From NCBI GenBank assembly GCA_963727765.1, contig CAVSGZ010000013.1, forward strand, positions 88,491-152,490: a stretch of DNA of 64,000 bases. The letters are read 5' to 3'. The position numbers and the translations under genes were made by a program. Every line of letters begins with the position of its first letter. Positions within the stretch are counted from its first letter, which is position 1. Source of the DNA: an uncultured Acidobacteriota bacterium (GTDB taxonomy: Bacteria; Acidobacteriota; Vicinamibacteria; Vicinamibacterales; Fen-181). The notes beneath the pieces were generated by a model. It saw only the letters and a list, made by a program, of their open reading frames with translations, was not told the origin of the DNA and made no database searches. Shown in pieces: positions 10,759-54,515 of this stretch.

Positions 10759-10943
10759 AGTGAGTCCTTCTCGTCGTTCAGGGGCCGACAATTCGGCCGT
10801 TCGAACACCTCTGTATCAAATCACGTGCCAAGAGTGGCCTGGACAGAACCTGCAAGTTGCCGAGCCATTTTGCGTGGTCGGCTCACGGAGGCGCCGCCGC
10901 TCCCGACATGACCGCCACGGTGTGGCGGAACGGGCGGGCGGTC

Positions 10944-35876: not shown

Positions 35877-36621
35877 ATGGACGCTGACCTCGAACGCCTC
35901 ATCCGCCTCCAGCAGATCGATCTCGCCGCCGAAGCGGCTCGCAAACGCATCGCCGACCACCCAACGCTCGTCCAGTCGCTCGACGCCAGGCTGTCCTCGG
36001 CCACCGAGGCGCTCGATGCCGCCAAGGCCAAGGTCGCCGAGAACCAGGCGGGCCGCCGCGCCATCGAGAAGGACCTCGCGACGATCCAGGCGCGACTGAG
36101 CAAGTTCAAGGACCAGCTGATGGAGGTCAAGACCAACAAGGAATACACGGCGATGCTCAAGGAAATCGAGGCCGCGCAGAACGAGGTGCGCCGCCTGGAG
36201 GACCTCATTCTCGAGCGCATGCTGGAGCACGACGACCTGGCGGCCCGGCAGAAGGCCGCCGAGTCGCGGCTCTCCGCCGACAAGGCGGCGGTGGCTGCCG
36301 AGCGCACAACGGTCGAAGCGGAAACGGTCTCGGCTCGAGCGCGAGCTCGAGGAGACGATTTCGGCCCGCGTCCGCGTGGTGGCCGACGTGTCGGCGACCG
36401 TGCTGTCGATTTACGAAACCGTGCGCGAGCGGCGCGGCACGGCGGTCGTGGAGATCAAGGGGGGCTACTGCAGCGCCTGCCACGTCCGGATTCGGCCCCA
36501 GGCTGCCAATGAGCTCAGGCGCAACCAGATGATCTTCCAGTGCGAGAGCTGCAAGCGGATCCTCTACTTCCCGCCCCAGGGCCCGACGCCGGCCGGACAG
36601 GCCGACGGAGTCGATTGCTGA
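35877..36621 (+). pseudogene. Coiled-coil plus C4 zinc-ribbon protein (COG1579-type), frameshifted as sequenced
   Basis: The N-terminal coiled coil is in frame 3 (to about 36330). The continuation 'LERELEETISARVRVVADVS...GGYCSACHVRI...FQCESCKRILY' is in frame 1. This family commonly precedes rnhA. Confidence 0.7.
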
Positions 36622-37022
36622 TGGTGGCCTACATCGACGGCGGGTCCCGCGGCAATCCCGGGCCGGCCGGATTCGGCGTGCGCATCGAGGATGGCCGAGG
36701 CTCGCTCGTCGAGGAGTGGCATGGCGCGCTCGGCGTCGCCACCAACAACGTCGCCGAGTACCGCGGGCTGCTCGCCGCGCTGACCTGGGCCGTCGAGCAC
36801 GGCGTGCAGGCCCTCGAAGTCAGGTCCGACTCCCAGCTTCTGGTCCGGCAGATGCTCGGCCTCTACCGCGTCAAGAACGCGGGACTTCTTCCGTTGTTCA
36901 AGGAAGCGCGCGGGCTGGCCGCCCGCATTCCGCGCGTCCGCTTCACGCACGTCCGGCGCGAGCAGAACACCGAAGCCGACCGCCTCGCCAATGAGGCGAT
37001 GGACGGCCCCGACGACAATTAG
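36621..37022 (+). CDS. rnhA: Ribonuclease HI
   Basis: 'VAYIDGGSRGNPGPAGFG', 'TNNVAEYRGLLAAL', 'VRSDSQLLVRQM' and 'REQNTEADRLAN'. The ATG overlaps the upstream TGA. Confidence 0.9.
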   Translation: MVAYIDGGSRGNPGPAGFGVRIEDGRGSLVEEWHGALGVATNNVAEYRGLLAALTWAVEHGVQALEVRSDSQLLVRQMLGLYRVKNAGLLPLFKEARGLAARIPRVRFTHVRREQNTEADRLANEAMDGPDDN

Positions 37023-37062
37023 CCGCGTCCGGGCTTCAGGCTCTGGCGTCGGGCCTCTCGCC

Positions 37063-38134
37063 TCACGGCTTTCGCGTCACCACGACGTGCAGCGTCACCG
37101 TCCCATCGAGAAACTGCTTCAGGTTCAGCTCCCACATCCCATCCCGGAACGACGCCCCCGGCGCGACGATTGCCGCTTGGGGCGGGTACGGACGGCGAAA
37201 CCCACTCGACGGCTCCGGGAGGAGCACCCCCGCCGCCTCGCCGAGCGCGGCCCGGTAATCCAGTTGCCCATCCCCGCCGACGCCGGACCCGACCCACGAC
37301 AGCTGGCGATGGGCCCGCAGCGCCACCTCGACAAACCCGTCGTCACGGAGGCGGCCCAACACCGTGCCCGTGACCTCCAGGCGGAGGGGGCTGACCGCGA
37401 CGTCGCGTGCGCTCTGCTCCAGGGCCCATTCCATGGCATCGAAGCGGAAGGGGGTTTGCACGCCGGAGTGGGCCGTCAACTGTTGGTGTTCCCACCGGTG
37501 TCCCAGTCGGCCGTTGTACTCGAGCCAGAGGTCGTAGAGCAGGGTGGCCTGGGGTTGCGGGGCCGGGACGGCGTCCACCATCACCTGCAGCACCACGTTG
37601 GCGCAGACCGACGACGTCGGGTCCGGCAGATAGTCCAGGACCTGGTGCTGCCCGACGTCGAGCTGCACGGTGCGGCGGCCGACCGCTTCGTCGGTGACGG
37701 CACCGGCCCGCCATCGTCCTCGTGCCCAGGATACCGCGAGGGTGACACGACCGGCGGACGCCTCGACCACCTCGACCTCGACCCGCCATCGCACCGCCGC
37801 CTGGGTCGGTTCCGCGATACCCACCGCGGCCCTGCACAGGTTGCCGGTCAATTCCGTGCCCGCCGCGAGAAACCAGGTCCGTCGGTCGCCGGGGCCCATG
37901 GCGCTCTGCACCATCGTTTCGGTCGTCCCGGTCGCGCGGTCCGGGGGCGTGCCCAGCAGATTCGAGCCGGACGAGGACGCGGTCCAGCACCGGTGTGCTC
38001 GCCAGGCTTTCTTGGGGAGCGACCAGGTGAGGAGAGGCTGCGGGCCGGACAACGAGACCGACGGCGGCACAGACACCGACCACGGCGCCGCAGAGTCCGA
38101 CGAGGCTCCGACGAGAAATGGTCTGGCGCATCAC
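37063..38134 (-). pseudogene. Hypothetical secreted protein, third gene of the ECF sigma/anti-sigma operon (apparent frameshift after the signal peptide)
   Basis: A signal-peptide-like start 'M(M)RQTISRRSLVGLCGAVVGVCAAVGLVV' (38134/38131) is in one frame. The 337-aa beta-rich body (37063..38076) is in another, with the junction somewhere in 37960-38080. No known domain. Confidence 0.45.
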
Positions 38135-38137
38135 CCT

Positions 38138-38654
38138 CTACTCCGGACGCTGCACGAGACCGGCGGCCGTGTCCTCCCACCGGAGGAACCGCAGCCGGAG
38201 CTCGGATTCTCGGCGGCGCGCCCCGTTCCACACCAGCCGATCGCGGGGGGAGCGCGCTCGGAATGACCTCGGGCAGCGACCACGTGACCTCGACGGGGGC
38301 GGGTTGGAAGGGGACCGGTGGCCGCTCCACGGCGATGACCTCCGCGGGGCCCAGCAGCGTCCGCACGACGTACCCGGTCGTCGCGGACGCGAGGATCAGA
38401 CCTGCCGCCACCGCCGGCAGGACAAAGCGCGCCATGCGGTCGCGTCGATCCCGGCGACCGAGCAGCGTCTCCATCCGCGTGTAGAAGGCCTCGCTTGGTT
38501 CGACACGGTCCTCCCGTGCCAGGACACTGAGCGCGGCGAAGTCGGCCAGCGCGTCGGCCGCGCCCGGGTCGGCCAGTGCCTCGGCCAGCAGGGCGGGATT
38601 GACGCGCTCGCCATCGAACAAGGCGCTCAGCGCCTCGAGATGCTCCGGTCTCAT
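38138..38654 (-). pseudogene. Anti-sigma factor (single-pass membrane protein), probable frameshift in its C-terminal part
   Basis: The ATG at 38654 overlaps the sigma stop (ATGA). It has an N-terminal anti-sigma-like helix region and the TM segment 'FVLPAVAAGLILASATTGYVV'. After the G6 run (38245-38250) the listed frame becomes Arg/Gly-rich junk. A +1 frame instead reads the protein-like 'DRLVWNGARRRESELRLRFLRWEDTAAGLVQRPE*', ending at 38138. Confidence 0.55.
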
Positions 38655-39170
38655 GGGGTGCCGTCCTCTCCATGTCGCTTCAGGGTACTGCGGACCCGTC
38701 CGCCCAGCCACTCGCGGAGTTGGACCCGTACGCGAAAGAGCCGGGCCCGGACTCCGTCCTCGGTCAGTTCACTCAGCGCGGCAATCTCCGCGTAGGTGAG
38801 CCCCACCACCTCGCGCAGCAGGAAGACCTCGCGGTCCGTGGCGTGGAGGCGGTCCAACGCCTCGTGCAGGCTGAACGCCAGCACCTGGGTGGCGTCGCGG
38901 CCGACGGGGCCCACCGACACCTCCACGACGCGCCGCCCCGAGGCCTGGCGTTGTCGGTCGATGAGCAGACGACGGGCGATGCGAAACAGCCAGACCGTCT
39001 CCTGGCCGGCCCCTTGGCGCCGGGTACTGGCCGGCACGCCGACTCGCCCGGTAGAACACCTCCTGGACGAGGTCCTCGGCATCTTCGGGACGCCGGGTGT
39101 GCCGCAGGCAGTACCAGAACAGGGTGCGGTGATAGCGGTCGAATAGATCGGCCAGGAAGTGCTCAGTCAC
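38651..39170 (-). pseudogene. ECF (group IV) sigma-70 factor, copy A; 1-nt insertion relative to copy B
   Basis: GTG start at 39170. It is nucleotide-identical to copy B (42454-42932) except for GGG at 39022-39024 where B has GG at 42785-42786, which splits the ORF. The region 2 ('DLVQEVFYRA') and region 4 ('LTYAEIAALSELTEDGVRARLFRVRVQL') motifs are present. Confidence 0.8.
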
Positions 39171-39183
39171 AGCGTCTACCCAT

Positions 39184-39212
39184 AAGAACGAACCAGAGCG
39201 CGGAAAGTGTCA
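39184..39212 (+). promoter_or_regulatory. Bipartite motif AAGAACG-N12-GAAAGTGTCA (candidate ECF-type promoter toward the Cys-rich gene)
   Basis: Exact motif halves at 39184-39190 and 39203-39212. The same architecture occurs inverted at 39275-39303. It contains GAAC (-35-like) and GTC (-10-like) elements. Confidence 0.45.
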
Positions 39213-39274
39213 AACCCCCGGGAGGGTGGACTGCCAGAGTCCGATTTCGCGTCTGGCCTCGTCTCCGTCAGAGG

Positions 39275-39303
39275 TGACACTTTCGGCCTCCGCCAACGTT
39301 CTT
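39275..39303 (-). promoter_or_regulatory. Bipartite motif AAGAACG-N12-GAAAGTGTCA on the minus strand (candidate autoregulated promoter of the sigma operon)
   Basis: The plus strand reads TGACACTTTC-N12-CGTTCTT, so the same half-sites and spacing point toward the sigma gene. Confidence 0.45.
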
Positions 39304-39366
39304 GCAGTGTACACGGCTCTGCTAGGCGATGCCCGACCTCACGCAGCGGCTCAACTGGAGGATGGC

Positions 39367-39813
39367 ATGGTCGTCAGCATCGCCTTCCGCCTGCAACATG
39401 CCCCCCGAGCGTTTGCCGACTATGCCGGGCCGGCCACGGTGCTCTACTCGCGCTCGCGGCTGACGGTGGCCGTCAACGACTACGTGGGGTGGACCTTCGT
39501 GGTGGCGCCCGACGACAGCCTCCTCGGCGTGGATGACCTGGGGTACGCGCAGGCGGATGTCACCGGGTTGAGCGTCTTCTGGGGCTCGTTGGTGCACGAC
39601 ACGGCCGACGTCGTTTTCGAGCGCCTCGTGCGGGGCTCCTGCGCCGCCGGCGACGGAGACGGGTGCGCCGACTGTGAGTCCGGTGGGCTGGGCGAGTCCC
39701 AATGTACGGCGAGCTGCGCAGGGGGGGACTGCCAGGCCAAGTGCGCATCAGGGTTCCATGCGTGCTGCAAGTGCCCCCTGAGTTGTGCGTGTTGCGCGGA
39801 CATCGGGGGGTAG
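39367..39813 (+). CDS. Hypothetical protein with a Cys-free 89-aa N-domain and a 59-aa C-terminal tail containing 13 Cys (copy A)
   Basis: SD GGAGGA precedes the ATG at 39367. The tail reads 'GSCAAGDGDGCADCESGGLGESQCTASCAGGDCQAKCASGFHACCKCPLSCACCADIGG'. All 4 substitutions against copy B in the tail are third-position synonymous changes. Confidence 0.7.
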   Translation: MVVSIAFRLQHAPRAFADYAGPATVLYSRSRLTVAVNDYVGWTFVVAPDDSLLGVDDLGYAQADVTGLSVFWGSLVHDTADVVFERLVRGSCAAGDGDGCADCESGGLGESQCTASCAGGDCQAKCASGFHACCKCPLSCACCADIGG

Positions 39814-40326
39814 CGTCGTGATTGTCGTCAGGGCCAGAACGCGAAGGTCAGGTCGGCGCGCGAACGCTCTCTGACCTCGCCAACGCGTGAGGAGGATGTC
39901 GCCATGACCTCTGGTGGCCTTGTAGGAGTGGCGCTGCCCGGCCCGAGTAGACGATATAGACAACACGAAAACGTGGCGAAACGCACATCAAGATCGGCCG
40001 CCGTCGCCCGTCCCAGTCGCTGCTCGGCCTTGTCCTGAGATTCTCGTGCGCGTCGATATCGTACCAGCGCCCGGTGTGTGCCAGACGGTGCGTGTCCCGC
40101 TGCGGCCACCCAACGTGGAGGAGTGATGATGTCGTGCAGACCTCCGTGAGACCCGTGGCGTGCAGCCTCTTCACGCTGCTCCATTTGCGCCGCCGGGGAC
40201 GAAGAACCCAACAAAGAAGTGAGCGATGAAGAGCATGATCGGGCCTCTGTCTCTCGTTACTCGCACGGCCAAGTAAACCTGGACACGCGGCCATCGCTGT
40301 CCCGCGTTTCCCAAGGAGGTCGTACC

Positions 40327-41418
40327 ATGATCAGACTGAAGCAGCGACCGCTCAGGCAGAGGATAATCGCCATCGTCGCAGTTCTCGGCATCACGTTCAC
40401 CGGTATGCCCCCACTTCTTGGCGCGGAACGAAAAGGGCGGCTGGACGACCAGGGCGCGCTGACGCAGTTCCTTGAAGTTCTCAATCGACAGGGTGGCTTG
40501 TCAGGGAAGAACATCGCGGACGTGGTCGCGGGCCGGCCGAGAACTCCCGGGCGTGTTGTGACGATGGCCGACATTCAACGATTTCGTGAGAAGCTGCTTT
40601 CGGATCAGGCCAACGCAGATCCGACTGTAGTCCAGCGCGCGAGGCGGGCGCTCATGTGGCTCAGGCTCGCGACGGCGACCACGGCGGCCGACCGGCACGA
40701 TCTGATCCGACAGTTGCCCGTCACGATCACGGTTTCTGCACCGACGGACGGGCGAGCGGGATTTGTGGAGAACTTCGTCGTTCGCGGCAAGACGCGGTTT
40801 CGTCTGTTCATTCCGAATGCTGGCACGCACTCCACAGTCGAGAGGTCATCGGGGCCGTCCGTGCTCGACCAAGATCCGGTATGCTACGACGACTACCAGC
40901 AGGAGAGCCCCTGCGCCACTGAACAAGACCTCGAGGACGCGGCGATGGCGGCTGCCGAACTAGACGCCCAGATCGCTGAGGCTCAGGCGGAGATCGATGC
41001 GCTCGGCCCCGAGGAGGGCGAGCAGGATGGCACGACGCTGAACCACGGACCTTGTACGGCGCCCAGCTGCGCCGAGCAGGCCGGTAACGCGGCCATGGCC
41101 CTGCTTGCCGGGGCCGCAACCGTGGTAACTACAGAAGCATCCATCGTTGGGGCGGCAGTCGGGGGGGTCGTCGTTGCTTCCGGAGCCACGGTCGCTGGCT
41201 GGATGCTGAGCGTCTTTGCGGCCGGATTCGCGGTCGGTTACACTGCAGGGGCGTACATAGCCTGCCGTCAGCTGCTGTCGGGCTTCTTCGATCAGCCGTT
41301 CGATCTTCCCCTCGTGTACCAGTTCACGTCCTGGCCATTCTCGACAGCGTGGCGTGGAATCCACGTCACGCCGGCGCCTGGCGACTCGTCTGGATACGGG
41401 TCGCCGGGCGCACTCTGA
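40327..41418 (+). CDS. Hypothetical secreted protein with a Gly/Ala-rich hydrophobic C-terminal region (copy A)
   Basis: SD AAGGAGG precedes the ATG at 40327. Signal peptide 'MIRLKQRPLRQRIIAIVAVLGITFTG', motif 'CYDDYQQESPCATEQDLED', and the glycine-zipper-like 'GAAVGGVVVASGATVAGWMLSVFAAGFAVGYTAGAY'. It is a paralogue of 43846..44967. Confidence 0.65.
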   Translation: MIRLKQRPLRQRIIAIVAVLGITFTGMPPLLGAERKGRLDDQGALTQFLEVLNRQGGLSGKNIADVVAGRPRTPGRVVTMADIQRFREKLLSDQANADPTVVQRARRALMWLRLATATTAADRHDLIRQLPVTITVSAPTDGRAGFVENFVVRGKTRFRLFIPNAGTHSTVERSSGPSVLDQDPVCYDDYQQESPCATEQDLEDAAMAAAELDAQIAEAQAEIDALGPEEGEQDGTTLNHGPCTAPSCAEQAGNAAMALLAGAATVVTTEASIVGAAVGGVVVASGATVAGWMLSVFAAGFAVGYTAGAYIACRQLLSGFFDQPFDLPLVYQFTSWPFSTAWRGIHVTPAPGDSSGYGSPGAL

Positions 41419-41471
41419 TCGGTGTTTGGAAGTGTCGCTGGCCTCGCATGTCATTGCAGAAGAGGAGCCAT

Positions 41472-41903
41472 ATGTCATTCTCCATTGTCTTGGCGATCGT
41501 TGGCATGTTGGCGGTGCCGACCGGCTACATCGCGTCGCGTTCTGTTCACAGAAGAACGCAACGGCGGTCCGTGCTGATTCCGGGGATGCTCGTGTTGTTG
41601 ACGCTGTGGTTGGCGATCCCCGCTGATGCCGTCGCCTGGCGTCATGTGTTACTGGCCATGGTAGTTGCCCTCGCAGTGTTCAACATTGTGGCGGACCGGC
41701 ATGTGATTAGTTGGCGTCGGCCGGAGCAGGTGCTCTTCGTGGCGGCGGCAGTCGCCTTGGCCGCTTCGTACTACCTGACCGGCGTCTCGTCTGCGATACG
41801 GTTGGCGTTGAGTTGCGCGTCCCTGGTTCTGGCGCTATCGGCTGTTGCCCTCACCATCGCGACGATATATCGAGCAGCCAGGTCGCGACGAGCTTCCGCG
41901 TAG
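41472..41903 (+). CDS. Small polytopic membrane protein (about 5 TM), copy A
   Basis: SD GAGGAG precedes the ATG at 41472. The N-terminus 'MSFSIVL' parallels 'MSFWSIL' in copy B. There are five hydrophobic segments. An alternative ATG lies at 41448. Confidence 0.6.
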   Translation: MSFSIVLAIVGMLAVPTGYIASRSVHRRTQRRSVLIPGMLVLLTLWLAIPADAVAWRHVLLAMVVALAVFNIVADRHVISWRRPEQVLFVAAAVALAASYYLTGVSSAIRLALSCASLVLALSAVALTIATIYRAARSRRASA

Positions 41904-42299
41904 CGGTTGACGATGAATCGTGGGGACGAAAGTCGACAGAGGTCGCAGGCCATGTCGTGTGTCTATCGGAGGATCTGCGGACAGTCGGCGATCTCCGGTG
42001 GTGCCCGCGAGTCGCCTGGGCGGTCCCCTTGGTCGGTGAGGGGTCCGTCCGGCGACGGTCATCGTACGCCAGCACGCCGTGCCCTATTGCCAGTCGAGTC
42101 GACGTCACCTCCCGTTTGTCGGCCCGCCAACGGCTTCAGCGCCGACTGGCGGTCCAGGGGCACGTGACCGGCCAGCTTGTCCTCGCCCCCGTTCTACGCG
42201 GCAACCCTGCGAGGCAGTTCGGGGCAATCGGCGGCGCGATGAAGCGCGAGCCGAGTGCGATGAAGCGCAGTAGAGCGCGATAGAGCGCTATCTTTCCGT

Positions 42300-42356
42300 C
42301 GACTTAGAATCCTGGGTCCCTCACGGGACATGTGGGTTCGACCCCCACCCCCGGCA
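42300..42356 (+). pseudogene. 3' fragment of a type II tRNA (tRNA-Leu, anticodon TAG-like); no 5' half
   Basis: Anticodon loop CTTAGAA (42303-42309), long variable arm GTCCC-TCAC-GGGAC (42316-42329), T-arm GTGGG-TTCGACC-CCCAC (42332-42348), acceptor 3' strand CCCCGGC and discriminator A. The upstream sequence cannot form the anticodon, D or acceptor stems. Confidence 0.65.
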
Positions 42357-42932
42357 CTTCAGGCTCAGGGCCCGAGGCCCGCTCCTCGACATCGCTCGGG
42401 GTGCCATGAGCGAGCGCTCGAGTTCACCGCACGCGGGTCGAAGGGCAGGGGTTCGGACCCGTCCGCCCAGCCACTCGCGGAGTTGGACCCGTACGCGAAA
42501 GAGCCGGGCCCGGACTCCGTCCTCGGTCAGTTCACTCAGCGCGGCAATCTCCGCGTAGGTGAGCCCCACCACCTCGCGCAGCAGGAAGACCTCGCGGTCC
42601 GTGGCGTGGAGGCGGTCCAACGCCTCGTGCAGGCTGAACGCCAGCACCTGGGTGGCGTCGCGGCCGACGGGGCCCACCGACACCTCCACGACGCGCCGCC
42701 CCGAGGCCTGGCGTTGTCGGTCGATGAGCAGACGACGGGCGATGCGAAACAGCCAGACCGTCTCCTGGCCGGCCCCTTGGCGCCGGTACTGGCCGGCACG
42801 CCGACTCGCCCGGTAGAACACCTCCTGGACGAGGTCCTCGGCATCTTCGGGACGCCGGGTGTGCCGCAGGCAGTACCAGAACAGGGTGCGGTGATAGCGG
42901 TCGAATAGATCGGCCAGGAAGTGCTCAGTCAC
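42321..42932 (-). CDS. ECF sigma-70 factor, copy B (intact frame; altered C-terminal extension; no adjacent anti-sigma gene)
   Basis: 203-aa ORF identical to copy A through '...VQLREWLGGRVR'. It then reads through unique sequence and the tRNA fragment before stopping at 42321. Confidence 0.75.
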   Translation of the reverse strand: MTEHFLADLFDRYHRTLFWYCLRHTRRPEDAEDLVQEVFYRASRRAGQYRRQGAGQETVWLFRIARRLLIDRQRQASGRRVVEVSVGPVGRDATQVLAFSLHEALDRLHATDREVFLLREVVGLTYAEIAALSELTEDGVRARLFRVRVQLREWLGGRVRTPALRPACGELERSLMAPRAMSRSGPRALSLKCRGWGSNPHVP

Positions 42933-42945
42933 AGCGTCTACCCAT

Positions 42946-42974
42946 AAGAACGAACCAGAGCGCGGAAAGTGTCA
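42946..42974 (+). promoter_or_regulatory. AAGAACG-N12-GAAAGTGTCA motif, copy B (plus strand)
   Basis: Identical to 39184-39212. Confidence 0.45.
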
Positions 42975-43036
42975 AACCCCCGGGAGGGTGGACTGCCAGG
43001 GTCCGATTTCGCGTCTGGCCTCGTCTCCGTCAGAGG

Positions 43037-43065
43037 TGACACTTTCGGCCTCCGCCAACGTTCTT
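43037..43065 (-). promoter_or_regulatory. AAGAACG-N12-GAAAGTGTCA motif, copy B (minus strand)
   Basis: Identical to 39275-39303. Confidence 0.45.
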
Positions 43066-43157
43066 GCAGTGTACACGGCTCTGCTAGGCGATGCCCGACC
43101 TCACGCAACGGCTCGATTGGAGGATGGCATGGGACGAAACCGACCACCGTCGTCAGC

Positions 43158-43592
43158 GTGGCCTTCCGCCTGCAACATGCCCCCCGAGCGTTTGCCGACT
43201 ATGCCGGGCCGGCCACGGTGCTCTACTCGCGCTCGCGGCTGACGGTGGCCGTCAACGACTACGTGGGGTGGACCTTCGTGGTGGCGCCCGACGACAGCCT
43301 CCTCGGCGTGGATGACCTGGGGTACGCGCAGGCGGATGTCACCGGGTTGAGCGTCTTCTGGGGCTCGTTGGTGCACGACACGGCCGACGTCGTTTTCGAG
43401 CGCCTCGTGCGGGGCTCTTGCGCCGCGGGCGACGGAGACGGGTGCGCCGACTGTGAGTCCGGCGGGCTGGGCGAGTCCCAATGTACGGCGAGTTGCGCAG
43501 GGGGGGACTGCCAGGCCAAGTGCGCATCAGGGTTCCATGCGTGCTGCAAGTGCCCCCTGAGTTGTGCGTGTTGCGCGGACATCGGGGGGTAG
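43158..43592 (+). CDS. Cys-rich-tail protein, copy B (start uncertain because of the 17-nt insertion)
   Basis: Same protein as copy A from 'AFRLQH' onward. The SD-proximal ATG (43128) is now out of frame and opens a 37-codon ORF. The in-frame GTG at 43158 is the nearest candidate start. Confidence 0.55.
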   Translation: MAFRLQHAPRAFADYAGPATVLYSRSRLTVAVNDYVGWTFVVAPDDSLLGVDDLGYAQADVTGLSVFWGSLVHDTADVVFERLVRGSCAAGDGDGCADCESGGLGESQCTASCAGGDCQAKCASGFHACCKCPLSCACCADIGG

Positions 43593-43845
43593 CGTCGCCA
43601 TCGTCGGCGTCGTCCTACCGTCGGGCTTGGGTTAGGCCGTTCGTCACCCGCGGCGACCAGCCAACGTGAAGGAGTCACGATGTCGTGCAGGCCTCCGTGA
43701 GATCCGCGGTATGGAGCCTCTCGACGCTGCTCTATTTGCGCCACCGGGGACGAAGAAGCCAGCAAAGAAGTCGGCGGTGAAGAGCCTGATCGTTGCTGTC
43801 ACGTTATTCACGCGGGCAAGTGAGCATTTCGCCAGGGAGATTACT

Positions 43846-44967
43846 GTGCTACGCAAATTGCCGTGCCGGAATTTGTTGGCAGGTTTGATGACCGCCTCAG
43901 TGTTAGCTGCTTTGATGACCGCGTCAGTCTTCGCCAGGGGAACACCGCGCGCTGCACCAACCCAGACCTCGATTCAGGGCGGCGGTGGCGAGATTCTCGA
44001 GGTGTTCTCAAATGACGGCCGCTCCGTCCGGCGCCTTGAAGCCGCGCAGCTCTCGGCTGTTGTGAGCAAGGCCGCGACAAGAAAAGACGAGACAGGGAGC
44101 CGAGGTTCTCTGCTTGCCTCTCCGGAATTCGTCGCCAGCACGCGAGCTCGTATAAGACAAGTGCTGGCTATGCCGCTGAAGAACAGGAAAGCCGACTTCG
44201 CCTTGACGCTCGCCGTCCTTGATGCAATGTCGGCAGCCTCGGAGGCAGAAGCCCATCAGCTGCTCGCGAGGCTTCCGATTCGAGTCGAGCGCAAGGTCGG
44301 ACCAGCGACGGTAACGACGAGCGTGTACGTCCGGGGCAACATCAAGTTCCAGGCGATGACCCCACTGTCGGCGACAGACAGTGAGGGGACAGTGACGTCC
44401 GTGTCGCCCAATGATGCGAACTCGCCGGGCGCGACTGACGAGGTCAACGTGTACGCTCCGGTCGCGCCTTCCATTTCCCCCCAATCCGACTGCGAGATCA
44501 ACCCGGACGATCCCTGCGCAACGCAGCAGGACATAGATGATGTGTTGGCCGCAGAGGCTGCAATGCAGGTGGACTTAGACTCGGCGGCGGATGACTTCGC
44601 CGCGGATGAAGTCGCCTGCTATGCAGATGGTTGTTGCCAATACCTTCCAACGACGTCGGGCCCAGCCATAAGGACCCAAAGTTGTGGATGGAAGTATCTT
44701 GAAGCCGCAGGTGGTCTCGCGGTGGCAGCGGGTGCCATCACGGGCGCGGTTGCGGTTACAATCTCACCGGACCCGATTTCCAAACTGGCGCTCTTCAGCG
44801 CGTACGCGACCGCCGCAGGTGCAGTTGCCCTGGCCGTAGCGGGAGTTTACGACGCGTGGGCGGGTCATTATAACATTCTCGACGCGCCCGTAAGTTGGAC
44901 GGGTCTTCGCATTGACCGCCCAGAGTTCGTGCTGAAGCCCGTGTTCGTTGGGCCGATCGGGAGGTGA
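43846..44967 (+). CDS. Hypothetical secreted protein with a Gly/Ala-rich hydrophobic C-terminal region (copy B, diverged paralogue)
   Basis: SD AGGGAG precedes the GTG at 43846. Signal peptide 'LRKLPCRNLLAGLMTASVLAALMTASVFA'. Shared motifs with copy A include 'LARLPIRV', 'YVRGNIKF' and 'CEINPDDPCATQQDIDD', plus the hydrophobic 'AAGGLAVAAGAITGAVAV...ATAAGAVALAVAGVY'. Confidence 0.6.
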   Translation: MLRKLPCRNLLAGLMTASVLAALMTASVFARGTPRAAPTQTSIQGGGGEILEVFSNDGRSVRRLEAAQLSAVVSKAATRKDETGSRGSLLASPEFVASTRARIRQVLAMPLKNRKADFALTLAVLDAMSAASEAEAHQLLARLPIRVERKVGPATVTTSVYVRGNIKFQAMTPLSATDSEGTVTSVSPNDANSPGATDEVNVYAPVAPSISPQSDCEINPDDPCATQQDIDDVLAAEAAMQVDLDSAADDFAADEVACYADGCCQYLPTTSGPAIRTQSCGWKYLEAAGGLAVAAGAITGAVAVTISPDPISKLALFSAYATAAGAVALAVAGVYDAWAGHYNILDAPVSWTGLRIDRPEFVLKPVFVGPIGR

Positions 44968-44982
44968 AGATTGGTGAACAAC

Positions 44983-45249
44983 ATGTCGTTCTGGTCTATT
45001 CTGCCATGGGCAGTCCTCACGCTCGGTTTCTTGGTGACCATCCTGGCTTATGCGCGCTTCGAGGAGATCGGCAGGATGGTCGGAGCCGGCGCCGGCCTCA
45101 TCGTCTGCAGCGTGGTGTTTCTGGCCGGAATCAATGGTACGGCGCTGGGCGCCCTGCTGTTCACGGGAGGTGCCGTTCTTGTGGGCCTGTCCGGATACGT
45201 CTTCGGGCGTGAGCGCAGAAGACGGGGCAAGGACGGACCTCTGGCGTAA
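44983..45249 (+). CDS. Small polytopic membrane protein (about 3 TM), copy B
   Basis: The ATG at 44983 gives 'MSFWSIL', parallel to copy A. Alternative TTG (44971) and GTG (44974) starts lie closer to the GGAGG SD. There are three hydrophobic segments and a basic tail. Confidence 0.6.
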   Translation: MSFWSILPWAVLTLGFLVTILAYARFEEIGRMVGAGAGLIVCSVVFLAGINGTALGALLFTGGAVLVGLSGYVFGRERRRRGKDGPLA

Positions 45250-45290
45250 CCGTTTGAAGTACGGGGTGCGAGGCGCACCAGGTCGGGTAG

Positions 45291-45330
45291 GGGCTGGTAG
45301 GACAACCGAGGACTCCTTACCAGCCCTTTC
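45291..45330 (+). terminator. Hairpin with a short T-tract after cassette B
   Basis: GGGCTGGTA (45291-45299) pairs with TACCAGCCC (45318-45326) across an 18-nt loop, followed by TTTC. Confidence 0.35.
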
Positions 45331-45388
45331 AATCTCTGGAGCAATCGGCGACACGATGAAGCGCGTTGGGGCGCCTTGAGCCTTCTGT

Positions 45389-46213
45389 CTACGTCCCGGT
45401 CGCTGCCCCTCTGCTCCTGATCACGGCGGCAATGCGGCCCGTCCCTGGCCCGTCGCGTCGGTACGACGCAAACCATTCGGGGTGGCTGGCGGTGCACAGG
45501 CCGGACTGGTGAATCCTCTCCGGGGGGACGCCGCTCGCCATCAACTGGTCCCGGTTCGCTCTCCACAGGTCGAGACGAATCCGACCAGCGACATCGCGCG
45601 CGAACCAGGCCTCGATCTTGCGCGCGAACCCGGCAGCCCGAAACGCCTCGATCACTTCTTCGCCCACGACGTAGCAGCAGGGACCGATGCTCGGCCCCTG
45701 CGCCACGACCAGGTCTTCGGGGTCCGCGCCGAACTCGCCGGCGAGCGCCGCGACCGCGGCCGGAGCCGCACCCGCCGCCGTGCCCCGCCAGCCTGCATGG
45801 ACGGCCGCGACCGCCCCGCTCCGCCGGTCGGCGACGAGCAGCGGTACGCAGTCGGCCGCCTGCACCACCAGCGCCACCGTGGTGTCGTCGGTCACCAGGA
45901 TGTCGGCCTGCGGCCACGATGACTCAGACTCACCCACGCCGGGGAGGACGCCGGAGTTTTCCCCGTAGACCGCGCGCGGGCCGGCTCGATGCACCACCAC
46001 GCCGCGCCCGTGCACCTGGTTCAGCCTCAGCAGCCGGTTCGTGGAGACACCGATCGCGGTAGCGACGCTGGCCCAATCCGCGCGCTCGCTCTCGCCGCGC
46101 AACCAGAGTTGACGGGTTGTGAAGAAGTGGTCGGCCACCTCGGCAAGCGGCGCCGACTGCAGGGCGGTTCCACAGCCCTGCCTTGTCCAGGCGAATCCAT
46201 CGAGCAGCGTCAT
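45389..46213 (-). CDS. pgeF: PgeF/YfiH-family (DUF152) purine nucleoside phosphorylase / polyphenol-oxidase-like protein
   Basis: Contains 'NQVHG', 'ADCVPLL', 'HAGWRGT', 'IGPCCY' and 'CTASHPEWFASYRRDG'. The ATG at 46213 overlaps the acpS stop (ATGA). Confidence 0.85.
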   Translation of the reverse strand: MTLLDGFAWTRQGCGTALQSAPLAEVADHFFTTRQLWLRGESERADWASVATAIGVSTNRLLRLNQVHGRGVVVHRAGPRAVYGENSGVLPGVGESESSWPQADILVTDDTTVALVVQAADCVPLLVADRRSGAVAAVHAGWRGTAAGAAPAAVAALAGEFGADPEDLVVAQGPSIGPCCYVVGEEVIEAFRAAGFARKIEAWFARDVAGRIRLDLWRANRDQLMASGVPPERIHQSGLCTASHPEWFASYRRDGPGTGRIAAVIRSRGAATGT

Positions 46214-46620
46214 TTGTCGGGCGTATCGGGTGATGCCGGGCGTTCGCCCAACAGGATGACGTGAGCCATCGCCAGCGAATCGGTGTGGGTGATGGTGATG
46301 GCCGAGGTCTTTCCGCCGATGGCCGCGAAGCGCTCGGCCGCCACGCCGTGCAACCGGAGTTGCGGCGGCCCGCCGCGCCGAACCACCTCGATGTCCTTCC
46401 ACACGACGCCCCTGGAGAAGCCCGTGCCCAGAGCCTTCATCGCCGCTTCCTTCACCGCGAACCGTGCGGCGAAGTGCTGGGCCGCGTGCCGGTGGGCTTG
46501 GCAGTACGCGATCTCGCCCGGCGTGAAGATCCTGGCGAGGAAGCGGTCGCCGTGGCGCGCGATCACGTCCGCGACGCGGGGGATCTCCGTCGCGTCGAGC
46601 CCGATGCCGATGATGTCCAT
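46210..46620 (-). CDS. acpS: Holo-[acyl-carrier-protein] synthase
   Basis: 'MDIIGIGLDATEIPRV...FTPGEIAYC...FAVKEAAMKALGTG...ITITHTDSLAMAHVIL'. Confidence 0.9.
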   Translation of the reverse strand: MDIIGIGLDATEIPRVADVIARHGDRFLARIFTPGEIAYCQAHRHAAQHFAARFAVKEAAMKALGTGFSRGVVWKDIEVVRRGGPPQLRLHGVAAERFAAIGGKTSAITITHTDSLAMAHVILLGERPASPDTPDK

Positions 46621-46964
46621 GGGCCGATCGGTACACGGTTCCCCGCCGTTTTCGTCAGCCCCACTCGAAATCGCGCCGGGTCGTGCCGCCGCCTTCTCGC
46701 GGCGTGCGTCGACCCGCCCTCCTCGCGCAACCGAAGTTGGCGTCTGGCCCGCCGCCGCACGAGGACCGGGCGGCGTGGATCTGCGCGTGGCGACAAAGGT
46801 GTGGCGAACCAGTCGCTTAGCGCGCCGGTCCCGGTCGCGCCGGACGGGTATGCCGCTTGCTCTGTTCTCCGGCAGGCCGCCTCGGGCCAGCGGCACCGGC
46901 GAGACCGTGCGACCCCGGTCCCGCGTTCGGGCTGAAGGCAGGGCCGTCAACAGGGAGGCTGCAG

Positions 46965-47267
46965 ATGCTCGTCAAGATCAGCCGCAACGACAGGGGCAAT
47001 CCGCCAGGAAAGCTGGCCGACGCCGAACTGCACTTCAGCGAGGGCGCGCTCGACGGGCTCAAGCTCATCGGGTTCGCCGTCTGGGAGCGGCGCAACGGCA
47101 ATGGCCGCAACGTCACTTTCCCGGCCCGCCAGTACTCGGTGAACGGCGAGCGGCGGAGCTTTTCGCTCCTCAGGCCGCTGGTCGACGCCGGTGCGCAGGA
47201 CCGGCTGCGCGACCTGATCCTCCACGCCTACGACGAACACGAGGAGCAAGCGGCGATCGCGGAGTGA
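46965..47267 (+). CDS. Small hypothetical protein, weakly SpoVG-like
   Basis: SD AGGGAGG precedes the ATG at 46965. 100 aa. 'LADAELHFSEGALDGLKLIGFAVWERRNGNGRNVTFPARQY' has the layout of SpoVG-type proteins, but the similarity is only by eye. Confidence 0.45.
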   Translation: MLVKISRNDRGNPPGKLADAELHFSEGALDGLKLIGFAVWERRNGNGRNVTFPARQYSVNGERRSFSLLRPLVDAGAQDRLRDLILHAYDEHEEQAAIAE

Positions 47268-47372
47268 GCCCGCCGTCGCCCTTCGGGCTATGGCGGGCAA
47301 GGGGTGATCTGCTCTCGCGAGGCCCGGTTCAGGCCGGCGCTGCGCCGCATCAGTTCCTCGCGGAGGCCGCGG

Positions 47373-49091
47373 TTACTCGAGCTGGCCGGAGGCGCGGAAG
47401 GTCTGCTCCTCGCGGAGGCCGCGATCGAATTCCTTGCGGAGGAACCCGGGCCTGACGCCGCCCCCGACGATGTCCCAGGGTAGGACCAGGTCCTGACTGC
47501 GGTCCCTGAAGACGTACCAGTCGGGGTCGATGCCAGCCGCCGCCGCCGCGGCGCGCCACTGCCCGCCGTTGCGCTCGGCTTCTTCGATCACCGGGGCGAC
47601 GCGGCGGTCGCCAAGCGAGAGCAGGGCCTGGTAGAAGGAGTTTCGCTCGGACTTGATGGAGAAGTGGACGTTGTCGAGGCTGGCCACCAACTGGCGCAGG
47701 CGCCGCATCTTGCGTTCGGTGGCTTCCGGCGCCTCGATGGCCATCCACTGGTAAGCCGTTCCCGGCTTGGGGACGAGGGGGTTCACGCTGGCCACAATCC
47801 GGCCGACCGTGCCGCGGCCGCGGGCGTGCCGCAGCATCGTTTCCCGCAGTGAGACGGTCAGGTCCCGGATCGCCACCAGGTCGTCGTCGGTTTCGGTGGG
47901 CAGGCCGATCATGTAGTAGAGCTTCAGGTTCTCGATGCCCGAGGCGAACACGAGCTCGGCCCGGTCCAGGATCTGGGCGTTGGTGACCGTCTTGTTGATC
48001 ACGCGCCGGAGGCGATCCGACCCGGTCTCTGGCGCAATCGTGATCGAGCGCTCGCCGCTCTCGCGCAGGATGCGGACGATCGGTTCAGTGATGTCGTCGA
48101 GCCGGAGCGAGGCGGGGCTGATGTGATAGCCGAGTTCGAACAGCCGATTGAGAATCCGCTCGATCTCCGGGTGGTCACAGAGGGCGATCGACACCAGGCC
48201 CACGCGCGACGCGTGGGGCCGCGCAGCCTCGGCCAGGCGCAGGATGCGGTCCGCGTCGAACGACCGGACGGGCAGGTAGTTGTACCCGGCCCAGCAGAAG
48301 CGGCAGAGGTTGGCGCAACCGCGGACCACCTCCACCAGGAGGCGCGAGCCGAACTCGGTGTCCGGCGAGAACACCGTGGTGGCCGGCGGGTCGGCGAAGT
48401 CCGTGGCGCGGAGGGTCGCCTTCGGCACCGGCGTCAGCAGGCCGGAGCCCGCGACGGGTTCAAATGCCGCGATCCGCCCGTCCGGGTCGTAACGGACGTC
48501 GACGAGCGCCGGTACGTACATCCCAGGCTGTCCAGCGAGGCGCCGTTCGATCGCCGCGTGGCCGCCGCCGCCGACGGCCCCCTCGACGAGTGCCGGCACG
48601 AGCACTTCGCCTTCGCCCGCGCAGACGACATCGACGAACGGGGCGAGCGGCTCGGGATTCAGGAAGCTGGTGGCTCCGCCGAGAACGATGAGCGGGTGGC
48701 GGTCGTCACGGTCCGCCGCGCGGACCGGCAGGCCGGCAAGCCGCAGCATGGTCAGGACGTTGGGATAGTCCCACTCGAACGACACCGAGAAGGCGAGCAC
48801 GTCGAAGTCGGCGACGGCCGTCTGCGACTCGAGGGTGATGATCCGCACGCCTGTTCTGAGCGCCTCGGCCAGCTCTTGTTTGGGCGGCAGGAACACGCGT
48901 TCGCACACGACATCGTCGCGCTCGTTGAAGAGGCGATAGACGGTCTGGAAGCCGAGGTTCGACATGCCAACGAAGTAAGTGTTGGGGAACGCGAGCGCCA
49001 CGCGCAGGCGGTCGGTGTGCGGCTTGCGGATGCAGCCGACTTCGCGGGAGAGGATTTCCCGCGCCCGTTCGCGGTGTTCCCAGGAGCTCAT
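47373..49091 (-). CDS. B12-binding-domain radical SAM protein
   Basis: 572 aa with a cobalamin-binding-like N-domain and the CxxxCxxC motif 'RGCANLCRFCWAG'. Confidence 0.8.
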   Translation of the reverse strand: MSSWEHRERAREILSREVGCIRKPHTDRLRVALAFPNTYFVGMSNLGFQTVYRLFNERDDVVCERVFLPPKQELAEALRTGVRIITLESQTAVADFDVLAFSVSFEWDYPNVLTMLRLAGLPVRAADRDDRHPLIVLGGATSFLNPEPLAPFVDVVCAGEGEVLVPALVEGAVGGGGHAAIERRLAGQPGMYVPALVDVRYDPDGRIAAFEPVAGSGLLTPVPKATLRATDFADPPATTVFSPDTEFGSRLLVEVVRGCANLCRFCWAGYNYLPVRSFDADRILRLAEAARPHASRVGLVSIALCDHPEIERILNRLFELGYHISPASLRLDDITEPIVRILRESGERSITIAPETGSDRLRRVINKTVTNAQILDRAELVFASGIENLKLYYMIGLPTETDDDLVAIRDLTVSLRETMLRHARGRGTVGRIVASVNPLVPKPGTAYQWMAIEAPEATERKMRRLRQLVASLDNVHFSIKSERNSFYQALLSLGDRRVAPVIEEAERNGGQWRAAAAAAGIDPDWYVFRDRSQDLVLPWDIVGGGVRPGFLRKEFDRGLREEQTFRASGQLE

Positions 49092-49254
49092 GGCGTCAGA
49101 TCGGAGAGGCAGCCATGGCAGTCCCGGACGAGGGTCGGGCCGAGCGCCGGCTCGAGTTGAAGCGCCGACGCTCGCGTGTGCCGTGGGTATTTTCAGTCTA
49201 CCACGCGCCGGGCACGCGGCCCGGCGGCGGCCTGGCCTGGAGAGCGACGGCCGG

Positions 49255-50544
49255 CTACCCCTGCTGGCGGCGCAGGAACGCTGGCACGTCGAGCGGCGAC
49301 GCCTCGCCCACGTCGGCCCCTTCCTCGGGGGACGGCTCGGCTGGCGCGCCGTTCACCACCGCGCGGGCCTGCGCGGGCACCGAGATGACCGACCGGCGGC
49401 GGACCGGAATCGAGGGCGTCACCGAACCGGTTTCGGCCGCGGGTACGGTCTGACGGTGCCCGTCGTACCAGGCCTGGTAGCTTTCGATGGCGACTGGCGT
49501 GTCGGTGCTGGGCCGCACGCCCTTGCCCGGCCGCCCGTCGCCGAACCCGGTGGCGATGACCGTGATCTTCACCTTTTCGCCGAGGCTCGGATCGACGACG
49601 GCGCCGAAGATGATGTTGGCGTCCTCGTGGGCGGCCTTGTAGATCGTGTGAGACGCGTCGTTGACCTCGCCGATGCCGAGGCTGCATCCGCCGGTGATGT
49701 TGATGATGACCCCTCGCGCACCGTCCACGCACGCATCCTCGAGCAGCGGGCTCGACACCGCCATCTTCGCGGCCTCGACTGCCCGGTCCTTGCCCTCCGC
49801 GATGCCGGTGCCCATCACGGCGACCCCCATGCCGCTCATGATTGCTTTGATGTCGGCGAAGTCGAGGTTGATGATCCCAGGCACGAGGATGAGGTCGGAG
49901 ATTCCCTGGATGGCCTGGCGCAGCACGTCGTCGGCCGCCGCGAACGCGTCGAGCAGCGACTGGCTCCGATTGACCGCCAGGACCCGCTCGTTCGGGATGG
50001 TGATGACGCTGTCGACCGTCTGGCGCAGCTCGATCAGGCCCTGCTCGGCCTGGCGGTTGCGCCGGCCCCCTTCGAAGATGAACGGCTTGGTCACGACCGC
50101 GATCGTGAGCGCCCCAATCTCGCTGGCGAGGCTGGCCACGACCGGCGCCGCGCCGGTGCCCGTGCCGCCGCCCATCCCCGCCGTCACGAACACCATGTCC
50201 GCGTCGTCGAGCGCCTCGAGCAGCCGCTCGGTGTCCTCGAGCGCGGCAGCCCGGCCGACGGCGGGATCGGCGCCGGCGCCCAGCCCCTTGGTCAGCTTCT
50301 CGCCGAGCTGCACCTTGATCGGCGCGACGCTCTGCTGCAGCGCCTGCACGTCAGTGTTGGCGACGATGAACTCGACGCCGACGAAGCCGGTTCGCACCAT
50401 CCGGTTCACGGCGTTGCTCCCGCCGCCGCCGACGCCAATCACCTTGATCCGCGCGCCGAGCCGCCGCGGGTCCTCGCCGAATTGGATCCGCAGCGATTCG
50501 GTCAACGCGTCGCTGCCGGGGATCAGGTGCTGCACGTTCGCCAT
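49255..50544 (-). CDS. ftsZ: Cell division GTPase FtsZ
   Basis: '[17 protein letters not shown]', the '[11 protein letters not shown]' tubulin signature, and the C-terminal 'DVPAFLRRQ' peptide. Confidence 0.97.
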
Positions 50545-50878
50545 TCACGCCTCCAGGGTTCGTGCCCTCAGATGTCCGTCGTCGGTTCAAGGCCGTGCCG
50601 TCGAAGCCACGCCGTCCGCGGCCGATGCCGCGCCGCGCGTGGATCAGGGTCGTGCCGTTCTGCCGGCCTGCGCCTTCAGCATCTGCGGCCGGACCAGCGC
50701 CAGCCGCGTGCGAAGCGGCATCTGGATCACCGTGCCGCCACGCAGCCATGTCCCGCCTCGCGCGAGCGCTCCGCGGTCCGGTGTCGGCCCCGGCAGGGCC
50801 TGGTCCGGACGAACCGCTCGTGCCGCCTGCGCCGCCGGCGATTCACGATGCAGAGTCATGCGAGTTGCGCTCCATCGC

Positions 50879-52150: not shown

Positions 52151-52186
52151 CGTCCTGTCACGACTCCGGCGTCGGCCGGCCGCCGG

Positions 52187-53089: not shown

Positions 53090-53117
53090 GATGACACGCC
53101 TCTCGGTCCTCTCCCGC

Positions 53118-54512: not shown

Positions 54513-54515
54513 GCG

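Follow-up and report, generated by a model that had tools for sequence, protein, structure and literature searches.

Two unannotated gene modules, set side by side and partly doubled by a recent tandem duplication, in an uncultured Acidobacteriota bacterium

An accessory region of about 8.3 kb lies between an RNase H gene (36540-37022) and a PgeF/Cu-oxidase_4 gene (45389-46213), itself followed by ACPS, in contig CAVSGZ010000013.1 of an uncultured soil Acidobacteriota bacterium; the window, from which positions are counted, is the whole stretch of 64,000 nucleotides analysed. The region probably consists of two independent, unannotated modules set side by side by a recent partial tandem duplication, of which module 1 is a sigma factor unit functioning like rpoE-rseA-rseB and module 2 comprises mobile pairs of genes for an exported protein (sec) and a small membrane protein (mem). 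That the two modules have separate distributions, are joined here and were partly doubled by a recent duplication is well supported.

An original prediction, made from the sequence of the window, had described one four-gene cassette occurring twice, in which a conserved head (a sigma gene and a gene for a Cys-rich protein) precedes a variable tail (a secreted and a membrane protein). All eight of its open reading frames (ORFs) are present where it had placed them or a few codons off, and the flanks are the rnhA and pgeF-acpS genes that it had named. It had recognised no family besides the sigma and anti-sigma factors; likewise, scans of all region proteins against Pfam, NCBIfam, PHROGs and PADLOC returned the sigma factor as the sole named family, with a weak RseA_N match for the anti-sigma. 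The Cys-rich protein, the exported product of the third gene of the sigma operon (sec0), sec and mem are four protein families without annotation in any library searched, and literature searches found no publication describing this gene set, in keeping with the earlier statement that no described system is known to have this combination. The lower G+C content claimed for the tails is also seen (0.61-0.63, vs ~0.69 elsewhere and ~69 per cent for the window), and the signal in third-codon-position G+C that marks core genes is weak in both tails, which supports an accessory region with a composition unlike that of the core genome.

The near-identity claimed for the heads is borne out, in that they form one long direct repeat of ~1.13 kb (R1 and R2; Table 1) with an identity of 97.6 per cent when gaps are counted and ~99 per cent by substitutions. 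The repeat runs from within the 3' end of the extracytoplasmic function (ECF) sigma gene, most of which it covers, across the intergenic region and through the Cys-rich gene to 5 nt past the stop codon of the latter. In a close relative of the window (locus L006), the same flanks (Zn-ribbon and RNase H genes on one side; PgeF, ACPS and FtsZ on the other) enclose one cassette only, composed of sec0, anti-sigma and sigma genes divergent from the Cys-rich gene, secB and memB. L006 matches window positions 36135-39818 at 98.4 per cent and 42454-54965 at 99.8 per cent, and relative to its single-copy allele the window has one additional unit of 3,763 bp (the head repeat plus tail A), which explains a second sigma/Cys-rich head without an anti-sigma gene. 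Locus L004 stems from a different sample and corresponds to one unit exactly (38695-42456, 98.8 per cent), its ends coinciding with the two repeat borders, as expected if the tandem arrangement exists there too.

From these alignments, the near-identity of the heads is the product of a 3.76-kb partial tandem duplication that is not in the closest relative, and that is both recent and polymorphic. The head alone is recently duplicated: the repeat ends at 42454, and in consequence the last 46 amino acids of sigma B are unrelated sequence, and no anti-sigma gene lies behind them. The original prediction had given copy A alone an anti-sigma factor and a further secreted protein; copy B indeed has no anti-sigma gene. 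The sigma A, anti-sigma and sec0 genes are all frameshifted in the window. The locus illustrates how duplicating only part of a region in tandem can leave the second sigma copy orphaned, with no anti-sigma gene of its own.

The distributions of the modules were compared among loci L001-L006, L008, L009 and L011-L019. The sigma, anti-sigma, sec0 and Cys-rich genes are found together in every locus carrying any of them, and since the flanking genes differ in every genome, these four genes travel as a set. No tail accompanies it in L001, L002, L011 and L012-L014, and no head accompanies the sec-mem pair in L009 and L015-L019; head and tail are thus separate modules with different distributions, and the single four-gene cassette of the original prediction is not upheld. 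The genes do co-occur in other genomes, and so are not the chance juxtaposition that it had named as a possible outcome. Such strict gene linkage yields testable functional units in the Acidobacteriota, a dominant but poorly studied soil phylum.

Table 1. Coordinates of the features of the two modules in the window
Feature	Position	Strand	Description
ECF sigma, copy A	38651-39170	minus	172 aa after removing extra G at 39022
ECF sigma, copy B	42321-42932	minus	203 aa, regions 2 and 4 intact
RseA-like anti-sigma	38138-38654	minus	171 aa after removing extra T at 38207
sec0, exported all-beta protein (predicted), third gene of sigma operon	37063-38134	minus	355 aa after removing extra T at 37961
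Cys-rich protein A	39367-39813	plus	148 aa, N-terminally deleted member of secreted family
Cys-rich protein B	43158-43592	plus	144 aa from GTG start
ECF-type motif facing sigma A	39184-39212	minus	exact match
ECF-type motif facing Cys-rich gene A	39275-39303	plus	exact match
ECF-type motif facing sigma B	42946-42974	minus	exact match
ECF-type motif facing Cys-rich gene B	43037-43065	plus	exact match
Repeat R1 (left head copy)	38691-39818	none	repeat search and alignment
Repeat R2 (right head copy)	42454-43597	none	copy closest to single-copy allele of L006
SecA, exported protein	40327-41418	plus	363 aa; N-terminal signal peptide, conserved Cys pairs, C-terminal Gly/Ala-rich hairpin
MemA, small membrane protein	41472-41903	plus	143 aa, 4-5 transmembrane helices
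SecB, exported protein	43846-44967	plus	373 aa; signal peptide, alpha/beta domain, disordered linker, three-helix C-terminal domain
MemB, small membrane protein	44983-45249	plus	88 aa, 3 transmembrane helices, Arg-rich C-terminus
Conserved leader U_A upstream of secA	40051-40241	plus	79-85% identical to U_B, ~72% to L003
Conserved leader U_B upstream of secB	43602-43792	plus	146-190-nt stretch like U_A
End-of-unit repeat J_A	42221-42278	none	resembles 45338-45374
End-of-unit repeat J_B	45338-45374	none	resembles J_A
tRNA-Leu(UAG) 3'-like fragment	42299-42356	plus	antisense within sigma B 3' end, between tail A and second head

Paired exported and membrane proteins

SecA and SecB are divergent over their full length, with 23 per cent identity over a central 107 amino acids (E 2e-5), and no similarity between MemA and MemB was detectable. 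A profile built from secA, secB and three relatives defines a family of 185 representatives, 78 of them below E 1e-10, and no known Pfam domain was found in the 69 members scanned. Six conserved Cys make up three presumptive pairs, the last of which brackets a Gly/Ala-rich hairpin of the form helix-SPEPVSK-helix. The AlphaFold2 model of secB, with a predicted local distance difference test score (pLDDT) of 78 and a predicted template-modelling score (pTM) of 0.73, has three long C-terminal helices at pLDDT >90; the last two (residues 280-306 and 313-346, pLDDT ~90-94) are modelled as the Gly/Ala-rich hairpin bracketed by conserved Cys, and together have the predicted character of a membrane-spanning hairpin.

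Directly behind the sec gene, in 10 of 10 loci, stands a gene for a protein of 86-160 amino acids with 2-5 transmembrane helices and, in most cases, an Arg-rich tail. The type of mem partner follows the type of sec: MemA is 41 per cent identical (E 3e-19) to the protein behind the secA-type gene of L017, the locus that also holds the closest secA relative (P0043), and MemB-type partners lie behind secB-type genes in L003, L006 and L008. Integrases and genes of integrative and conjugative elements neighbour the pair in L018 and L019, as do transposases in L003, L009, L015 and L018. With tblastn, neither secA nor secB found a counterpart among PLSDB plasmids, nor did secB among GenBank phages, and a metagenome scan for further sec loci returned two short contigs only.

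Module 2 is best explained as a mobile two-gene unit (secA-memA, 40327-41903; secB-memB, 43846-45249) whose Sec-exported protein is predicted to insert its C-terminal Gly/Ala-rich helical hairpin into membranes. By analogy with known membrane-active toxins, we infer that this insertion may be toxic, such that sec would be a bacteriocin-like pore former, mem its inner-membrane immunity protein, and the pair a cargo of integrative elements, a reading that is plausible while falling short of probable. The effector/immunity character proposed in the original prediction survives in part, since every secreted Gly-zipper protein has, encoded downstream of it, a membrane protein of its own, but a conserved N-terminus with a swapped toxin is not seen; polymorphic toxins combine a conserved N-terminal trafficking region with a variable C-terminal toxin, and the sec proteins have no known trafficking domain.

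Several observations weigh against a toxin. No toxin domain of known type was found in the sec proteins, the N-terminal alpha/beta domain is itself conserved, and a Foldseek search with the secB model gave no significant match (best E 0.13), with faint Roadblock/longin-like matches for the N-terminal domain. No outer-membrane export route is evident, and no lysis protein or type I, V, VI or VII secretion system (T1SS, T5SS, T6SS, T7SS) by which the protein might be released or delivered stands beside the pair among the called genes and Pfam families of L003, L008, L009, L015-L019 and the window ORFs. At position 44863 the window secB has a Gly codon (GGT) in place of a Cys that L006 shares with almost the whole family, and whose predicted partner is the Cys that opens the hydrophobic hairpin; the substitution is either a real inactivating change or a base error. 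Finally, a disulfide-bracketed hairpin could equally be a permanent membrane anchor.

There is reason to consider that sec and mem form a stable inner-membrane complex with no toxin, in which a hairpin-anchored sec would present a periplasmic alpha/beta domain and mem would be its partner. Such a complex would act for the mobile element or for the envelope, for instance in entry or superinfection exclusion or in envelope maintenance. A non-toxic complex of this kind is nearly as likely as the bacteriocin, though doubtful in its own right. The Cys flanking the hairpin fit one that spans the membrane and has its two ends in the periplasm, sec and mem alike are rich in the Gly/Ala small-residue motifs that suit helix packing, no export apparatus is nearby, and the pair lies beside integrases in integrative elements, a common place of exclusion and cargo genes. 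In L017 its neighbours are a resistance-nodulation-division (RND) metal efflux pump, a BON protein, a two-component system and a possible Spy/CpxP-like protein (read from sequence, with no family match). However, the co-varying, non-homologous partner types (A, B and that of L015) are more typical of toxin/immunity specificity pairs, and library scans found no similarity to known exclusion proteins. Should either a toxin or an exclusion role prove true, the genes of module 2 would be a new family, carried on integrative elements, with a membrane-active part in competition or exclusion.

Some further features of these proteins may be recorded here. The acidic double-disulfide region of sec, an acidic helix between two Cys pairs (profile positions 180-252, secB residues ~216-264), matched CP12 weakly (E 6e-4), the one match in searches of PDB sequences with profiles of the Cys-rich, sec and sec0 families, and this was taken as probably no more than a likeness of composition and Cys spacing. 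The core of the secB signal peptide contains a 27-nt in-frame tandem duplication (43874-43927, 85 per cent identical; LLAGLMTASV / LAALMTASV). A Cys-rich gene stands upstream of sec-mem only in the window lineage, L003 and L008; in L008 (9214-11586) it encodes a 194-amino-acid secreted protein with a Cys-rich tail in front of a secB-memB-type pair, and this protein is not homologous to the window family, which makes L008 a second and independent case of a Cys-rich gene adjoining a sec-mem pair.

The sigma unit and its probable Cys-rich target

The sigma factor is a sigma-70 of the ECF class (group 4), matching Sigma70_r2 (1.2e-13) and Sigma70_r4_2 (5.8e-13) in Pfam and TIGR02937 (sigma70-ECF) in NCBIfam at 76.8 bits vs a cut-off of 42.9. 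Sigma A is identical to copy B over 38691-39170 except for a 1-nt indel, and an intact 172-amino-acid version is encoded in L005. The co-transcribed cognate anti-sigma gene that is characteristic of ECF factors accompanies copy A, and copy B has none. It overlaps the sigma stop codon, and its single-pass product is kept in L001-L003 and L011-L014 (171-amino-acid orthologues in L001-L003); it has one transmembrane helix, and SELRLRFLRWED is the conserved motif at the end of its short periplasmic tail. The match to RseA_N (PF03872) is weak (E 0.036; 15.1 bits, under the 24-bit cut-off); a motif LSALFDGE resembles RseA by eye. In the same seven loci, L001-L003 and L011-L014, sec0 follows behind sigma and anti-sigma.

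Both the sigma and the Cys-rich genes stand behind the motif TGACACTTT-N13-CGTTCTT, which has 4 exact matches in the window vs 0.09 expected, all in the two sigma/Cys-rich intergenic regions. The same divergent pair of motifs is present in L002-L006 and L011; of the two copies in L001, one is exact and the other has a 12-nt spacing and 3 mismatches. The motif is kept across loci whose proteins are only ~50 per cent identical. Its spacing and CGT-containing downstream element fit ECF promoters. A third copy in L003 (10709-10737, 3 mismatches) precedes an extra Cys-rich paralogue, truncated to 110 amino acids, right behind the main Cys-rich gene (10769-11101). A scan for sigma-70 promoters and terminators came back empty.

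The Cys-rich gene is divergent from sigma, anti-sigma and sec0 in L001, L002, L003 and L011, and in L012-L014 a member of its family lies directly downstream of sec0. Full-length members have 203-211 amino acids, comprising a signal peptide, a beta-rich domain of ~130 amino acids and a 55-amino-acid tail with 13 invariant Cys, all of which Cys-rich A retains in its C-terminal 55 residues. In the window lineage an in-frame deletion of codons 5 to ~58 (~54 codons) has taken the signal peptide, leaving both ORFs without ~58 N-terminal residues, and no invariant residue is missing from what is left; L005 still has the first four codons, MGRP. The ratio of nonsynonymous to synonymous substitution rates (dN/dS) of 0.24-0.48, no higher in the window lineage than in others, indicates purifying selection on the gene. 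The family is rare, with 7 clusters among 5.8 billion proteins and an occurrence in 1 of 185,579 species genomes, an Acidobacteriota metagenome-assembled genome (MAG), and its profile found no match among PDB sequences. A metallothionein or a precursor of a ribosomally synthesised and post-translationally modified peptide was set aside for the Cys tail, given the signal peptide and ~130-amino-acid beta-rich domain of full-length members and a neighbourhood with no radical S-adenosylmethionine enzyme or other maturase conserved beside the gene (L001-L003, L011-L014). The deletion is seen at 39367-39380 and 43129-43160 of the window by comparison with 10001-10190 of L001-L003, and copy A lacks a further 15 nt. 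In copy B, the frame of an upstream ATG at 43129 fits that of the gene only with a shorter A-run at 43137-43139, such as L005 and L006 have; the length of this run varies among assemblies (1, 2 or 3 A).

Given this gene order and the shared motif, we infer signal transduction of the kind found in rpoE-rseA-rseB. By that analogy, module 1 (37063-39813) is most likely an autoregulated ECF sigma unit in which the anti-sigma would keep sigma at the membrane and sec0 would bind its short conserved periplasmic tail, until an envelope signal frees sigma to increase transcription of its own operon and of the Cys-rich gene, its direct target. Module 1 would then be of interest as an ECF system in which the promoter motif is defined, one target gene stands out clearly and the periplasmic partner is unusual.

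This reading, too, has to contend with contrary findings. No sequence or fold relation of sec0 to RseB/MucB was found: MucB_RseB domains are not detected by Pfam or NCBIfam in sec0 or 12 relatives, and RseB structures do not appear in the Foldseek top 50. The loss of the signal peptide may leave the Cys-rich protein defective in the window lineage. In addition, the motif was not found upstream of secA or secB, so that adjacency in the window lineage and L003 is the sole link between modules 1 and 2.

It is also possible, though unlikely, that sec0 is a minimal secretin-like outer-membrane channel, and module 1 a small dedicated export pathway, controlled by an ECF sigma of its own, that would serve the Cys-rich protein and perhaps other exported proteins encoded nearby. 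The AlphaFold2 model of sec0 is all-beta (pLDDT 75, pTM 0.46), and nearly all of its best ~30 Foldseek matches in the PDB are secretins (InvG, GspD, PilQ, BfpB, RcpA), with probabilities of 0.84-1.0 and E values of 1.6e-4 to 1e-2 but with template-modelling scores (TM-scores) of only 0.19-0.26 and root-mean-square deviations of 17-36 A; that sec0 and the Cys-rich protein are always encoded together would suit a channel and its substrate. Against this, sec0 and its 12 relatives match no Pfam or NCBIfam family, a threshold as loose as E 5 brings up no Secretin (PF00263) match in the 12 members, hhalign with GspD of E. coli returned a probability of 0.07%, the sec0 profile matched no PDB sequence, and a Foldseek search of viral structures was uninformative and contained no named secretin. 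The protein lacks both N-domains and an S-domain, and its gene has no pilotin gene close by. The secretin likeness of the model is a lead only. It would be a long shot to combine this lead with the toxin reading, such that module 1 is a minimal device for export and signalling, not known before, in which sec0, as a stripped-down secretin-like pore of the outer membrane, releases the Cys-rich protein and reports its own state to sigma through the anti-sigma tail, while the sec-mem pairs are a new and widespread class of bacteriocins, Sec-dependent, pore-forming and stapled by disulfides, which integrative elements spread among soil bacteria together with the cognate immunity proteins.

Unit borders, an unlikely tail-swapping model and probable sequence errors

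Past the repeat, copy A has 232 nt that are not in copy B; a shared leader (U) follows, after which similarity is lost. The original prediction had the tails sharing short motifs only, which is fair for the proteins, given the limited SecA-SecB similarity and the lack of any between the mem proteins, but it missed this leader, 79-85 per cent identical, upstream of both sec genes. No structured RNA is indicated in U, where the covariation term was unfavourable and Rfam gave nothing. Behind each tail is a short repeat of ~55 nt (J_A, J_B). The tRNA-like fragment has, by eye, an anticodon loop (CTTAGAA), a long variable arm, a T arm and an acceptor 3' strand, and its match to positions 27-71 of the Rfam tRNA model is weak (14.2 bits, E 1.4); ARAGORN found no full tRNA gene at 42299-42356, and a full gene is not in the window. 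This fragment may be the remnant of the attachment (att) site of an integrative element; no integrase was found in the studied region of the window. In L001 a tRNA-Leu(CAA) gene (5594-5682) lies ~1.3 kb from the far end of the module, and it was rejected as a counterpart because it is a different isoacceptor.

In L002 (10734-20274) and L003 (15182-16746), genes for large RHS/YD-repeat and Flg_new_2/SPM-domain proteins are directly downstream of the Cys-rich gene, and judging from these neighbourhoods the head may often adjoin secreted polymorphic proteins.

With heads ~99 per cent identical and tails highly diverged, with U to the left of each tail and the ~55-nt repeat to its right as possible homology arms, and with RHS/YD-type genes behind the same head in L002 and L003, it might be argued that the region is one polymorphic four-gene effector/immunity cassette present twice, its conserved head being a platform for tail swapping. 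We consider this quite unlikely. The conserved-head, variable-tail array that the original prediction envisaged is contradicted by the loci listed above in which the head has no tail or the tail no head, the closest relative has a single cassette, the sigma motif does not precede the sec genes, and divergence of the sec proteins runs from end to end, with no trafficking or toxin domain of a known kind in them.

Compared with near-identical L006, the window has single additional bases at 36328, 37961, 38207 and 39022. Three of them cause one frame change each, in sec0 (extra T at 37961), the anti-sigma gene (extra T at 38207) and sigma A (extra G at 39022), and dropping them restores proteins of 355, 171 and 172 amino acids, respectively; the fourth splits a housekeeping CT398/Zn-ribbon gene (35877-36621). 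The sites are intact in L004, L005 and L006, a 355-amino-acid protein from a short-read assembly (P0012) is 100 per cent identical to frame-restored sec0, L006 has frameshifts of its own at other positions, and two of the four insertions change GATC to GATTC, which suggests a systematic long-read error at a methylated site. Because relatives are intact at these sites, the errors of L006 lie elsewhere, a housekeeping gene is hit and the GATC pattern recurs, the four insertions look like consensus errors of long-read assembly rather than gene decay; the related contigs are part of nanopore MAGs of uncultured Acidobacteriota. That the tandem arrangement or its genes are an assembly artefact or a decayed pseudogene cluster, as four single-base frameshifts within 36.3-39.1 kb, a start of Cys-rich B out of frame with its ATG and the one copy in L006 might suggest, is very improbable. 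Some 10 substitutions and two indels separate the two copies, whose flanks are not the same, and L004, independently, stops at the two borders of the repeat. L004-L006 and P0012 show no frameshift at these sites, the Zn-ribbon and GATC insertions fit base-calling error, and dN/dS is well below 1.

Similarity to L006 ends inside the Zn-ribbon gene (window ~36135, L006 3756). The density of substitutions between the two is mosaic, at ~3 per cent in 36.2-36.9 kb, ~0.1 per cent in 37-39.3 kb and 0.16 per cent to the right of the cassette, a pattern that points to probable recombination between strains.

Comparison with known systems

The rpoE-rseA-rseB operon is an envelope-stress operon of the ECF02 type. 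Its conserved context (PMC7826278) resembles module 1 in the gene order of ECF sigma, single-pass anti-sigma with an RseA_N-like N-terminus and exported protein, and the sigma-type motif in front of the module 1 operon fits autoregulation. It differs in that the third gene of module 1 is unrelated to RseB/MucB and no rseC is present, the periplasmic part of the anti-sigma is only ~55 amino acids, a divergent Cys-rich gene carries the same motif, and the family is confined to a few uncultured Acidobacteriota lineages.

The likeness of sec0 to the secretins (GspD, InvG, PilQ, pIV) lies in its predicted long beta-hairpin sheets, which bring up secretins as the best Foldseek matches. Unlike them, it has no Secretin Pfam match or profile similarity to GspD, its TM-scores are <=0.26, and at only 355 amino acids it is without N-domains, S-domain or partner secretion machinery.

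Pore-forming colicins with small inner-membrane immunity proteins are well known. Module 2 is like them (discussed in PMC11630599) in its hydrophobic Ala/Gly-rich hairpin, predicted to pack on amphipathic helices in a soluble exported protein, in the adjacent gene for a 3-4-transmembrane protein and in the presence of the pair on mobile DNA. Unlike colicins, it has no receptor-binding or translocation domain and no lysis gene, its helical domain has three helices rather than ten, and sec has a Sec signal peptide and three conserved Cys pairs, with no sequence or Foldseek similarity to colicins.

Small inner-membrane immunity proteins encoded beside glycine-zipper toxins are established for Cdz of Caulobacter (PMC5380434) and for the ionophores of contact-dependent inhibition (CDI) systems (PMC11630599), and the LXG toxins TelE and EsxX are glycine-zipper membrane toxins with membrane immunity proteins (10.1101/2022.09.07.506920, PMC12744356). 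Module 2 differs from all of these in having no T1SS, CdiB/CdiA or T7SS/LXG delivery domain or apparatus, its toxicity being a prediction, and from Cdz in that the sec proteins are ~350 amino acids long, vs 84-86 for CdzC and CdzD, and have an N-terminal alpha/beta domain of their own. It shares with them Gly/Ala small-residue motifs in (predicted) membrane-active helices, a small transmembrane partner encoded next door, many types that in the known systems are mutually non-cross-reacting, and horizontally acquired genes. The two modules are, in sum, variants of ECF signalling and of a membrane-active protein with its cognate membrane partner, built from unannotated families.

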